In this document: piece by piece, positions 11,750-22,807 of the stretch | How positions within the stretch are numbered: position 1 is the first letter of the stretch | How the letters are laid out: each line of letters begins with the position of its first letter | Assembly: GCF_003334385.1 (NCBI RefSeq) | Contig: NZ_QOWN01000054.1 | DNA: 31,048 nucleotides | Source of the DNA: Escherichia coli | Lineage (GTDB): Bacteria > Pseudomonadota > Gammaproteobacteria > Enterobacterales > Enterobacteriaceae | Direction: 5' to 3' (one strand) | The notes under the pieces: model-generated | Seen by the model: only the letters and a program-made list of their open reading frames with translations | Database searches by the model: none | What the model was told of the DNA's origin: nothing | Made by a program: the position numbers and the translations under genes

Positions 11750-11805
11750 GTTCTGCGCTGTTAACGCGTAATTTACATTCAATGCCCCATTTGCGGGGCT
11801 AATTT

Positions 11806-11890
11806 CTTGTCGGAGTGCCTTAACTGGCTGAGACCGTTTATTCGGGATCCGCGGAACCTGATCAGGCTAATACCTGCGAAGGGAACAAGA
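11806..11890 (+). promoter_or_regulatory. TPP riboswitch (THI element) aptamer in the thiC leader
   Basis: CTTGTCGGAGTGCC...CTGAGA...GGAACCTGATCAGGCTAATACCTGCGAAGGGAACAAG carries the conserved THI-box motifs with P1 closed by CTTGT/ACAAG; the expression platform continues to the thiC ATG at 11982. Confidence 0.85.
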
Positions 11891-11978
11891 GTTAATCTGC
11901 TATCGCATCGCCCCTGCGGCGATCGTCTCTTGCTTCATCCGTCGTCTGACAAGCCACGTCCTTAACTTTTTGGAATGA

Positions 11979-17346: not shown

Positions 17347-17594
17347 GACGGAATGTAAGAACGTAAATTTATTCCGAGCCGCTACGGAAGATGAAAAACG
17401 CAAGGTTGTTGAAAGCGTTGTGTTTTTTTATGGTAGTGCCGTCAGCAGGAATGTTGTCCAGGGCGAAAAGCTTCTTCCTCGTTTCGCCCTGCCTTTCTTA
17501 AAAATTCCGTAATGCAAAGTCTGAAGCCATCGCCTGTTGAGCAATGAAAGAGATCTGATTGTAAGAGAGTAAATACTCAACTATGATAGAGACG

Positions 17595-17757
17595 AAAATA
17601 AGAACACATGTTCTCATCTTCCAGGATGCAGCAGACTGAAGAAATTCAGACATCCCGCAACCTGCGATTATCGCAAGGTCAAGGCAAAGTCCGGTAATGG
17701 CGTTCTGAATACCAGAGATAATTCTCTGGCGAAACCCACCTTAAGGTGGGTTTTGTT
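17595..17757 (+). ncRNA. sroH: putative small RNA in the thiH-htrC spacer (consistent with sroH)
   Basis: Sigma70-like promoter TTGTAA-17bp-TATGAT (about 17559-17587) and, about 160 nt downstream, an intrinsic terminator; no ORF of 60 aa or more. Position matches my recollection of sroH; strand and ends are inferred, not verified. Confidence 0.4.
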
Positions 17758-18461: not shown

Positions 18462-18487
18462 AAAAAACCCGCCGAAGCGGGTTTTTA
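18462..18487 (-). terminator. rpoC intrinsic terminator
   Basis: Minus strand reads AAACCCGCTTCGGCGGGTTTTTTT: GC stem, GAAG-type loop, T7 tract, about 20 nt after the rpoC stop. Confidence 0.8.
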
Positions 18488-18507: not shown

Positions 18508-21500
18508 TTACTCGTTATCAGAACCGCCCAGACCTGCGTTCAGCAGTTCTGCCAGGCTGGCAGATGCGTCTTCTGCAGTCACCTGCGGTGCAGCCGGAGC
18601 TTCACCCGCAGCACGGCGACGCATACGATCCTGGTGGTACGCGTAACCGGTACCTGCCGGGATCAGACGACCCACGATAACGTTCTCTTTCAGGCCGCGC
18701 AGTTCGTCGCGTTTGCCCGCAACGGCTGCTTCGGTCAGCACGCGAGTGGTCTCCTGGAACGATGCCGCGGAGATGAAGGACTCGGTTGCCAGAGACGCTT
18801 TGGTGATACCCAGCAGATCGCGGGAGTAAGTTGCACCCACTTTGCCGTTCGCTTCCAGTTCGCGGTTTGCGATCTTGACGCGAGAGTATTCAACCTGTTC
18901 GCCTTCCAGGAAGTCGGAGCTACCCGCGTTAACGATGGTAGCTTTACGCAGCATCTGACGAACGATAACTTCGATGTGTTTATCGTTAATCTTAACGCCC
19001 TGCAGACGGTATACGTCCTGTACTTCGTTAACGATGTAACGAGTAACAGCATGAACACCACGCAGACGCAGAATGTCGTGCGGCGCTTCCGGACCGTCGG
19101 AAATTACGTCACCACGTTCTACACGTTCACCTTCGAACACGTTGAGCTGACGCCATTTCGGAATCATCTCTTCGTACGGATCGCTACCGTCTACCGGGGT
19201 GATAACCAGACGACGTTTACCTTTGGTTTCTTTACCGAAGGAAACGATACCGCTGATTTCAGCCAGGATTGCCGGCTCTTTCGGACGACGTGCTTCGAAC
19301 AGGTCCGCAACGCGCGGCAGACCACCGGTGATGTCCTTGGTACCGCCGGATTCCTGCGGAATACGCGCCAGGGTGTCACCAGAGCTGATCTGTACGCCAT
19401 CTTCCAGCTGAACAATCGCTTTACCCGGCAGGAAGTACTGCGCTGGCATATCGGTACCTGGGATCAGAACGTCGTTACCCTGAGCATCAACGATTTTCAG
19501 TGCCGGACGCAGATCTTTACCACCTGCGGTACGTTCTGCGGAATCCAGAACCACCAGCGAAGACAGACCGGTCAGTTCGTCGGTCTGACGCGTAATGGTC
19601 TGGCCGTCGATCATGTCAGTAAAGCGTACAAAACCGCTTACTTCGGTGATAACCGGCATGGTGTGCGGGTCCCAGTTTGCAACGGTTTCGCCGCCAGCAA
19701 CCTGTTCGCCATCGCCTTTCGCCAGTACCGCACCGTAAGGTACTTTGTAGCTTTCTTTAGTACGACCGAATTCGTCGATCAGTTTCAGTTCAGTATTACG
19801 GGAAGTGATAACCAGTTTACCGCTGGAGTTCACAACCGACTTCACGTTGCTGAGCTTGATGCTACCTTTGTTTTTCACTTGGATGCTGGATTCAGCAGCC
19901 GCACGAGATGCCGCACCACCGATGTGGAACGTACGCATGGTCAGCTGTGTACCCGGTTCACCGATGGACTGTGCCGCGATAACACCGATTGCTTCACCCT
20001 TGTTGATGATGTGGCCACGCGCCAGGTCACGACCGTAGCAGTGCGCACATACACCAAAGTCGGTGTCACAAGATACAACAGAACGTACTTTAACCGCGTC
20101 GACAGAGTTCTCTTCCAGCAGGTCACACCACTGTTCGTGCAGCAGCGTGTTGCGCGGAACGAGGATATCAGCAGTACCCGGCTTCAGAACGTCTTCAGCA
20201 GTTACACGACCCAGTACGCGATCGCGCAGCGGCTCTTTAACGTCACCACCCTCGATAACCGGAGTCATCATGATACCTTCATGGGTACCACAATCGTCTT
20301 CGGTAACCACCAGGTCCTGCGCCACGTCAACCAGACGACGAGTCAGGTAACCGGAGTTCGCAGTTTTCAGTGCGGTATCCGCCAGACCTTTACGAGCACC
20401 GTGGGTGGAGATGAAGTACTGGAGTACGTTCAGACCTTCACGGAAGTTCGCGGTGATTGGCGTTTCGATGATGGAGCCATCCGGCTTCGCCATCAGACCA
20501 CGCATACCAGCAAGCTGACGAATCTGTGCCGCAGAACCACGCGCACCGGAGTCGGCCATCATGTAGATGCTGTTGAAGGAAACCTGCTTCTCTTCCTGAC
20601 CGTCACGGTTAATCACGGTTTCAGTTTGCAGGTTATCCATCATCGCTTTGGATACACGATCGTTCGCCGCAGCCCAGATATCGATAACTTTGTTGTAGCG
20701 TTCGCCCGCAGTTACCAGACCAGACTGGAACTGCTCCTGAATTTCAGCAACTTCTGCTTCTGCCTCGGAGATGATTTCGTGTTTCTTCTCCGGGATGACC
20801 ATGTCATCGATACCAACAGATGCACCAGAACGCGCTGCATAGGCGAAGCCGGTGTACATGATCTGGTCCGCAAAAATAACGGTCGGTTTCAGACCGAGAA
20901 TGCGGTAGCAGGTGTTCAGCATTTTGGAGATTGCTTTTTTACCCAGCGCCTGGTTGACGATGGAGTAAGGCAGACCTTTCGGTACAATCATCCACAGAAT
21001 GGCACGGCCAACAGTCGTGTCTTTCAGGCTGGTTTTCGCTACTAATTCACCGTTAGCATCTTTTTCATACTCGGTGATACGCACTTTAACGCGCGCATGC
21101 AGAGAAGCCAGACCAGAGCGATACAGACGTTCTGCTTCTTTCGGGCCAGTCAGCACCATGCCTTCGCCTTTGGCGTTAACACAGTCACGGGTCATGTAGT
21201 ACAGACCCAGTACAACGTCCTGAGACGGAACGATGATTGGTTCGCCGTTCGCCGGGGACAGGATGTTGTTGGTAGACATCATCAGCGCACGCGCTTCCAG
21301 CTGGGCTTCCAGCGTCAGCGGTACGTGAACAGCCATCTGGTCACCATCGAAGTCGGCGTTATATGCCGCACAAACCAGCGGGTGCAGCTGGATAGCTTTA
21401 CCTTCGATCAGTACCGGTTCAAATGCCTGGATACCCAGACGGTGCAGAGTCGGTGCACGGTTCAGCAGTACCGGGTGTTCGCGGATAACTTCGTCCAGGA

Positions 21501-22731
21501 TATCCCAAACGACAGCTTCTTCGCGCTCAACCATTTTCTTCGCAGCTTTAATGGTGGTAGCAAGACCACGCAGTTCCAGCTTGCCGTAGATGAACGGTTT
21601 GAACAGCTCCAGTGCCATTTTCTTCGGCAGACCGCACTGATGCAGACGCAGGTATGGACCTACGGTGATTACAGAACGACCGGAGTAGTCAACACGCTTA
21701 CCGAGCAGGTTCTGACGGAAACGACCCTGTTTACCTTTGATCATGTCGGCCAAAGATTTCAGAGGACGCTTGTTAGAACCGGTGATCGCACGACCGCGAC
21801 GACCGTTATCCAGCAGGGCGTCTACCGCTTCCTGCAGCATACGTTTTTCGTTACGTACGATGATGTCCGGCGCAGCCAGATCCAGCAGACGTTTCAGACG
21901 GTTGTTACGGTTAATGACGCGACGATACAGATCGTTCAGGTCAGAAGTCGCGAAACGACCACCATCCAGCGGAACCAGCGGACGCAGATCTGGCGGCAGT
22001 ACCGGCAGAACGGTCAGGATCATCCACTCTGGTTTGTTACCAGACTGAACGAACGCTTCCAGCAGTTTGATACGCTTGGTCAGCTTTTTACGCTTGGTTT
22101 CGGAGTTGGTTTCGTTCAGCTCTTCACGCAGCTGTTCGCACTCTTGCTCCAGATCCATGCTCTTCAGCAGAGCCTGGATTGCTTCCGCCCCCATCTTCGC
22201 GTCGAATTCGTCACCGAACTCTTCCAGCGCGTCCAGATACTGCTCTTCAGTCAGGATCTGCTGACGTTCCAGGTTGGTCATACCGCCTTCGATAACCACA
22301 TAGGATTCAAAGTACAGTACGCGTTCGATATCGCGCAGCGGCATATCGAGCAGCAGACCGATACGGGACGGCAGCGATTTCAGGAACCAGATGTGCGCAG
22401 TCGGGGAAGCCAGTTCGATGTGGCCCATACGCTCACGGCGTACTTTAGTCTGGGTCACTTCAACGCCGCACTTCTCACAGATGACGCCACGGTGTTTCAG
22501 GCGCTTGTACTTACCGCACAGGCACTCGTAATCTTTTACCGGCCCAAAGATACGGGCGCAGAAAAGGCCGTCACGTTCTGGTTTGAACGTACGGTAGTTG
22601 ATGGTTTCCGGCTTTTTAACTTCACCGAAAGACCATGAACGGATCATGTCTGGCGAAGCCAGAGCAATTTTGATCGCATCAAACTCTTCGGTTTTAGTCT
22701 GCGCTTTCAGAAACTTTAATAAATCTTTCAC
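18508..22731 (-). CDS. rpoC: DNA-directed RNA polymerase subunit beta'
   Basis: 1407-aa ORF with zinc-binding cysteines and the NADFDGD catalytic motif. Confidence 0.98.
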
Positions 22732-22807
22732 GGATTTGCTCCCGTCGGAGTTAGCACAATCCGCTGCCGGGTTTTAACCCGACAGCAGTGACCTGTTTGA
22801 GCGAGAA

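Follow-up and report, generated by a model that had tools for sequence, protein, structure and literature searches.

Engineered intergenic hairpins, as in tunable intergenic regions and 5' stabilising hairpins, can be of arbitrary sequence, are placed just upstream of the ribosome-binding site (RBS), and isolate the decay and translation of the neighbouring genes. Protection of mRNA by intercistronic hairpins is also an established mechanism in natural operons, with malE-malF and papBA as described cases (PMC5927463). Here we consider a hairpin in the spacer between rpoB and rpoC of Escherichia coli, the genes for the catalytic core of RNA polymerase, where it is understood only in part how the β and β' subunits made from one 8-kb message are kept equimolar.

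Our full-text literature search returned no paper on the rpoB-rpoC hairpin and no functional study of it; the sequence and S1-mapping papers of 1980-87 lay outside that search, and hairpins in this spacer were presumably remarked on in the early 1980s. The palindrome itself could be seen as soon as the operon sequence was available. What is new is the comparative case, made up of compensatory evolution, sense-strand specificity, fast turnover of the stem, recurrence across orders, and an adjacent invariant hairpin masking the Shine-Dalgarno (SD) sequence of rpoC.

The rpoB-rpoC junction and its hairpin

The window, by which we mean the whole stretch of 31,048 nt that was analysed, is E. coli chromosome. 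The 351 bases around the hairpin match E. coli chromosomes at 100% identity and are present in 5421 of 5426 complete genomes, whose annotation assigns them to the end of rpoB and the beginning of rpoC. The junction was also found in two plasmid-typed records of the E. coli collection and was absent from 5 of the 5426 genomes, and in strain SCU-124 rpoB is annotated as a frameshifted pseudogene and rpoC is replaced by a truncated "hypothetical protein"; all of these are probably artefacts of assembly or annotation. Other elements recognised in the window are the sRNA sroH (201 bits; 17594-17754, plus strand), antisense to yjaZ and downstream of rpoC, and a TPP riboswitch (74.8 bits; 11801-11901, plus strand) upstream of the thi operon.

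Both rpoB and rpoC are on the minus strand, and therefore the mRNA is the reverse complement of the window. The rpoB coding sequence (22808..26836) specifies 1342 amino acids, as in the RefSeq E. coli annotation, and ends with the UAA stop codon at 22808..22810. It is separated by a 76-nt spacer (22732..22807) from the rpoC coding sequence (18508..22731), which starts with GUG at 22729..22731. The spacer corresponds to 4185274-4185349 in MG1655 and to 4391268-4391343 in SL1344. Read in the direction of transcription, the spacer opens with UUCUCGCUCAAACAGGUCA (22789..22807), which is predicted to be mostly single-stranded and is moderately conserved (pairwise diversity 0.10). The hairpin follows, with its 5' arm CUGCUGUCGGGU at 22777..22788, the loop UAAA at 22773..22776, of which neither sequence nor length is conserved in relatives, and its 3' arm ACCCGGCAGCGG at 22761..22772. 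A linker that is near-invariant in Enterobacteriaceae-like sequences, AUUGUGCUAA (22751..22760), joins this big hairpin to a mini-hairpin, CUCC-GACG-GGAG (22739..22750), in which the rpoC SD sequence (GGGAG, 22743..22739) is paired with an anti-SD-like CUCC. All of these features are on the minus strand.

On the plus strand the hairpin is seen as the inverted repeat GCTGCCGGGTT/AACCCGACAGC at 22763-22786. In the mRNA it forms the stem 5'-CUGCUGUCGGGU-UAAA-ACCCGGCAGCGG-3' (window 22788..22761), with 12 bp made up of 10 Watson-Crick and 2 G.U pairs. A preliminary description of this DNA had reported an inverted repeat in the 76-nt spacer upstream of the rpoC start that could fold in the mRNA, and this is borne out by the fold of the spacer (z = -2.95) and by the compensatory changes described below. 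The repeat that it gave is present, but the extent of 22763-22788 does not hold, nor does the 2-nt loop, which is sterically impossible; the stem is two bases longer at its low-coordinate end and the loop has 4 nt. The "one mismatch" of that description (C/A on the plus strand) was reported because the non-coding strand had been quoted, and in the RNA it is a U.G wobble pair.

The fold of the spacer (22732-22807) has an energy of -28.4 kcal/mol, equalled by 1 of 200 dinucleotide shuffles, and the 12-bp stem is at its core; in isolation, the core hairpin reaches -20.9 kcal/mol (about -21). In a 196-nt context the inner ten pairs of the stem have pair probabilities of 0.85-1.0, and the outer, flanking pairs are weak (0.46-0.47). 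This hairpin escapes an inverted-repeat scan that needs an exact seed of 8 nt, since the seed is broken at the wobble position, and in place of that scan we used a stability scan, in which the energy of each 34-nt window across the 31 kb was calculated. The 34-nt window at 22760-22793 (-22.0 kcal/mol) ranks second in stability among the approximately 31,000 windows of the minus strand, and the plus strand at the same position folds short of -17 kcal/mol. The most stable 34-nt local fold of the whole window is found at 7901-7935, with -22.4 kcal/mol on the minus and -20.7 kcal/mol on the plus strand. The hairpin between rpoB and rpoC is thus confirmed as a real and very stable RNA stem-loop.

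The base closing the loop, 22777, is dimorphic in E. coli. About 46% of the 5421 genomes have U in the mRNA, as in this window, giving 12 bp and the UAAA loop. The other 54% or so differ by one base within the 46-nt query used to find them, and this was a G at 22777 in both of the variant genomes inspected. The G variant forms 11 bp around a GUAAAA loop and is predicted to be equally stable.

Compensatory evolution and recurrence of the hairpin

A degenerate pattern for the N-terminus of RpoC retrieved 66 metagenome contigs with 42 distinct spacers, mostly Enterobacterales-like, and for the analysis of the stem we used the 18 Enterobacteriaceae-like spacers aligning base for base with that of E. 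coli. Within these 18, double-sided compensatory changes were found at 7 of the 12 stem pairs, for example CGGG/CCCG to GGAG/CUCC, or C-G to G-C. Standard pairs occupy 93.7% of the stem cells, compared with 29-58% in controls where the partner was slid by 1-3 columns, and the observed covariation score was reached by 0 of 500 shuffles. A covariance model made from the 18 spacers also aligns more divergent Enterobacterales spacers and those of several other orders. In the model-fitted alignment of 59 distinct sequences, 12 of 12 pairs covary and 95% of the cells are paired, although an alignment of this kind leans towards its fitted structure and is used as support only.

The departures from Watson-Crick pairing in the stem comprise 24 cells with G.U or U.G and 1 with A.C. 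Only the mRNA strand tolerates such a pattern, which argues against a palindrome acting at the DNA level and against a purely mutational, template-switch origin. As far as sequence comparison can tell, this G.U bias and the lack of a comparable fold on the plus strand fit with selection for RNA structure on the sense strand. The competing view is that of a functionless quasi-palindrome, maintained or homogenised by template-switch mutation during replication and tolerated in an otherwise free spacer. The dimorphism of E. coli at the loop-closing base would agree with this, as would a stem evolving faster than synonymous sites, which is expected if template switching brings in paired changes in one step. 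However, template switching gives Watson-Crick pairs on both strands, whereas the wobble pairs and the fold here are strand-specific, the stem is held at approximately 11-13 bp despite its high turnover, and many orders carry hairpins of unrelated sequence in this spacer. We consider a functionless origin improbable.

Almost all of the variation in the 18 aligned spacers falls inside the hairpin. Pairwise diversity is 0.26 in the stem and 0.23 in the loop, which varies freely among relatives, compared with 0.17 and 0.12 at the third codon positions of the flanking rpoB and rpoC sequences and 0.10 in the 5' flank of the spacer. The stem therefore varies more than synonymous sites, and the 29 nt from the hairpin to the start codon (22732-22760) vary far less (0.04). 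This absence of sequence constraint on stem and loop argues against a sequence-specific ligand and in favour of a physical role. It also bears on the idea of a site for a factor that recognises double strands or a particular shape, by which the hairpin would serve for RNase III cleavage, for binding of ProQ or another RNA chaperone, or as an autogenous operator for RNA polymerase subunits. Autogenous translational control of β and β' has been described in the older literature, and the rplL-rpoB spacer of the same operon has what we take to be a known RNase III site. However, neither the sequence of the stem nor that of the loop is conserved, and the 12 bp are well below the approximately 20 bp (about two helical turns) usual for RNase III substrates, so that an RNase III-sized duplex was rejected and a factor site as a whole appears very doubtful.

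To look beyond the close relatives, a protein-anchored scan with one genome per species gave 80 rpoB-rpoC junctions of Gamma- and Betaproteobacteria. Of the species sampled, 57 have a spacer of 40 nt or longer; in 34 of these the fold z falls below -2, and 40 possess a core hairpin at -12 kcal/mol or better, of unrelated sequence, in counts that ignore phylogenetic relatedness. Hairpin content rises with spacer length (Spearman 0.62), and in many Betaproteobacteria the spacer is 10-30 nt long and lacks a hairpin. In 57% of species the main hairpin has its 3' foot 19-32 nt ahead of the rpoC start, versus 34% with random placement (p ~0.001, not corrected for phylogeny), and the distance from the rpoB stop to the hairpin is broad across species. 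In five Enterobacterales-like metagenome loci (L087, L090, L124, L127, and L132), one or two further strong hairpins are inserted after the rpoB stop and ahead of the conserved hairpin, which brings the spacer to 95-145 nt, yet the conserved hairpin keeps its distance of 28-29 nt from the rpoC start. At the level of predicted folds, these comparisons show that hairpins of unrelated sequence have been reinvented repeatedly in the rpoB-rpoC spacer across lineages.

Candidate functions at the junction

With its GC-rich 12-bp stem, 4-nt UAAA loop, and energy of -20.9 kcal/mol, the hairpin has traits of a terminator, and it could be imagined to act as a weak terminator or hairpin-dependent pause that lowers the transcription of rpoC compared with rpoB, or that keeps RNA polymerase in step with the loading of ribosomes. 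Its stability equals that of the rplL-rpoB attenuator in the same operon, and the bases just after the stem form a putative pause-like context, G(-10)/U(-1)/G(+1). However, the tail (AUUGUGCU / GGAUUGUG) has no U-tract, defined as at least 5 U in 8 nt, and the terminator scan made no call here; of 40 analogous hairpins in other species, only 1 is followed by such a U-tract. In or beside the spacer (MG1655 41852xx-41853xx), no RNA 3' end is listed in the E. coli Term-seq tables considered from PMC7815308, which are non-exhaustive and which do include the 3' end of the rplL-rpoB attenuator (MG1655 4180995). On these grounds an intrinsic terminator was rejected. Furthermore, β and β' are required 1:1, and attenuation between their genes would be counter-productive. 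Termination or pausing at this hairpin therefore seems to us very unlikely. Just past the rpoC stop there is a perfect 10-bp palindrome, AAAAACCCGC/GCGGGTTTTT (18463-18486), with an A-run on one side and a T-run on the other, that by its sequence looks like a bidirectional terminator. No plus-strand end is given for it in MG1655 in the same portion of the tables, which indicates that these are not exhaustive.

Several known classes of element were compared with the hairpin and rejected. It does not belong to the REP/BIME or another repeat family, as the 46-nt query has a median of 1 place per genome in the 5421 E. coli genomes and is thus single-copy. Nothing was found at the Rfam gathering thresholds, the only match being rdlD at 13.8 bits (gathering threshold 50, E = 4.5). 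A boxB-boxA Nus site was considered using the gammaproteobacterial boxA consensus GYTCTTTAANA, as given in the material considered from the boxA survey (PMC5725501). The E. coli spacer matches it with 4 mismatches, the mean best match over spacers was 3.5 versus 3.8 in shuffles, and rpoC is not named in the portion of the supplements of that survey that was covered. The hexamer UUUAAC does occur in 10 of the 57 rpoB-rpoC spacers versus 1.5 expected from shuffles (loci L002, L006-L009, L012-L014, L017, and L024), usually as GGUUUAACUCC directly ahead of the SD mini-hairpin, and does not fit the boxA consensus.

Turning to translation, the big hairpin ends 29 nt ahead of the rpoC GUG and does not cover the SD sequence, which is predicted to pair with the local CUCC or with the linker and never with the big hairpin. 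An operator occluding the RBS was therefore rejected. When the big hairpin is deleted in silico, the predicted energy for opening the rpoC initiation region shifts by -0.27 kcal/mol in E. coli and by a median of +0.1 over 26 species. As this is no systematic effect, we also rejected direct control of RBS accessibility. For these reasons the evidence leans against the simple version of an earlier suggestion, that the hairpin modulates the ratio of β to β' translation. Classical translational coupling by a long-range helix between the post-stop nucleotides (UCUCG or GCUC) and the rpoC SD sequence has a probability of about 0 when the 3' coding context of rpoB is given. Such a closing helix is seen in some folds of the spacer taken alone, and since both partners are invariant, covariation is uninformative; this reading was put aside.

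If anything at this junction directly tunes the translation of β', the mini-hairpin is a better candidate than the big hairpin, judging from its conservation and predicted pairing. Its 4-bp stem is invariant in all 18 close relatives, and the SD nucleotides are paired locally with a predicted probability of 0.4-0.7. Among the 62 sampled species whose spacer has 25 nt or more, 12 conserve the motif AACUCC-N3-5-GGAG, and these belong to several gammaproteobacterial orders (Enterobacterales, Orbaceae, Vibrionaceae, Pasteurellaceae, Shewanella, Colwellia, and others). A more elaborate proposal, and in our view a long shot, is that the big hairpin, the near-invariant 10-nt linker, and the SD-sequestering mini-hairpin (AACUCC-N4-GGAG, from Enterobacterales to Vibrionales, Pasteurellales, and Alteromonadales) together make up a dedicated translational operator of rpoC. 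In this case the big hairpin, with its conserved shape, would offer a platform to a standby 30S subunit or to an assembly intermediate of RNA polymerase, and β' would be held 1:1 with β independently of rpoB translation.

The position of the hairpin could also suggest that it uncouples the two cistrons in translation. As an initiation boundary for rpoC, it would stop a terminated 70S ribosome or 30S subunit from sliding from the rpoB stop to the rpoC start and would fix the 5' edge of the rpoC ribosome-binding region, so that β' would be made by de novo initiation only, at the invariant SD/anti-SD module. Three observations are in line with this, namely the clustering of the hairpin foot at 19-32 nt upstream of the rpoC start across lineages, the near invariance of the downstream 29 nt including the SD mini-hairpin, and the start of the hairpin 19 nt after the stop, by which it would stay folded during termination. 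Classical rpoB amber mutants still make β', which suggests independent initiation. On the other hand, the predicted accessibility of the initiation region is unchanged by the in-silico deletion, and short spacers, together with shared ancestry, account for part of the clustering near the start. Our literature search found no experimental data on re-initiation at the rpoB-rpoC junction. On balance we regard a role in uncoupling translation as rather unlikely, though worth keeping in mind.

The reading that we favour, with a probability of roughly 40%, is that the hairpin is a sequence-independent barrier, shielding the ribosome-free RNA of the spacer and separating the decay of the rpoB and rpoC cistrons. 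We favour it because of the stability and uniqueness of the structure within the window, its compensatory evolution, the selection on the sense strand, the lack of sequence constraint, the recurrence, and the position. The hairpin would be a structure-only element of the rplKAJL-rpoBC mRNA, of arbitrary sequence, located just 5' of the region where the 30S subunit initiates on rpoC. It starts 19 nt past the rpoB stop in E. coli, which by estimates of the ribosome footprint is outside the reach of a terminating ribosome. By folding, it would take 28 of the 76 untranslated nt out of the single-stranded pool that is needed by Rho and by RNase E, whether this acts by direct entry or by scanning from the 5' end. 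Exonucleases moving 3' to 5' from a cut in rpoC would be halted before rpoB, and any fragment bearing rpoC would keep a structured 5' region. In consequence, each of the two essential 4-kb cistrons could be translated and degraded independently of the other, and initiation on rpoC would be governed by its own invariant region, of which the SD-sequestering mini-hairpin is part. Among known mechanisms, that of a protective or insulating hairpin between cistrons fits best.

Some of the evidence limits the barrier reading or counts against it. The predicted single-stranded fraction of the spacers is 0.44 versus 0.47 in shuffles, and the longest single-stranded run is likewise little different; with so small a difference, the argument for shielding draws on how stable the structure is, not on how much of the spacer is paired. 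A hairpin is absent from many Betaproteobacteria, and the Term-seq tables considered from PMC7815308 give no RNA 3' end at the hairpin of E. coli. The rpoB-rpoC pair is in the operon set analysed in PMC5927463 and is not in its differential-decay lists, which are not exhaustive; this suggests that the hairpin causes no large difference in steady-state levels in exponential growth. No RNase E site was seen in the Salmonella spacer in the TIER-seq supplements considered, where the list of sites is possibly incomplete. The preliminary description had also offered a processing site as a function, and the evidence leans weakly against the simple version of this, given that the spacer has neither a 3' end in the Term-seq tables considered from PMC7815308 nor an entry for differential decay in PMC5927463.

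Standing beside the SD-masking mini-hairpin, the big hairpin offers a concrete, mutable handle on the insulation of the two cistrons, with respect to decay, Rho access, and translation. Should it be only a generic barrier, it would still be a clean natural example of selection for structure only, in which the stem outpaces synonymous sites and yet remains paired. Its interest would be modest, unless the module of hairpin, linker, and mini-hairpin is a dedicated operator for β' synthesis.

Comparison with known systems

The arrangement at this junction has a certain likeness to the boxB-boxA sites of rrn and lambda, in which a hairpin of variable sequence is followed a few nt later by a conserved U/A-rich motif, here UUUAAC in 10 of 57 species, but the rpoB-rpoC spacer shows no match to or enrichment of the boxA consensus. 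With intrinsic terminators the hairpin shares a GC-rich stem of 11-12 bp and a 4-nt loop, and differs from them by having neither a U-tract nor a listed 3' end.

Closer at hand is the attenuator and RNase III hairpin of the rplL-rpoB spacer, which is in the same transcript, is likewise in an untranslated spacer, and has nearly the same energy (-21.7 versus -22.0 kcal/mol). In contrast to the rpoB-rpoC hairpin, it is followed by a U-run and by a strong 3' end in the Term-seq tables considered (MG1655 4180995). The region of the attenuator also matches an Rfam model, P26 ("Pseudomonas sRNA P26"; 74.5 bits, 27090-27151, minus strand), whereas the rpoB-rpoC hairpin matches none, and the P26 match lies at the same place as the attenuator hairpin GGCTGGTGACT/AGTCACCAGCC (27091-27116) and the 3' end at MG1655 4180995.

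Engineered intergenic hairpins differ in being synthetic and in that they usually flank a designed RNase E site, whereas at rpoB-rpoC there is no documented cleavage site. Among natural elements, that of malE-malF is a multi-copy REP and the rpoB-rpoC hairpin is single-copy. The known protective cases lead to unequal mRNA levels, whereas the rpoB-rpoC pair was part of the operon set analysed and is absent from the differential-decay lists (PMC5927463), and they also differ from the rpoB-rpoC hairpin in that no stable 3' end was found at the latter in the Term-seq tables considered from PMC7815308. In its other properties the hairpin is like the protective intercistronic stem-loops of malE-malF and papBA and those reported by Dar and Sorek in 2018 (PMC5927463): it stands between two cistrons, it is stable and free of a U-tract, it forms in the RNA of the sense strand, and its structure is conserved in enterobacteria.
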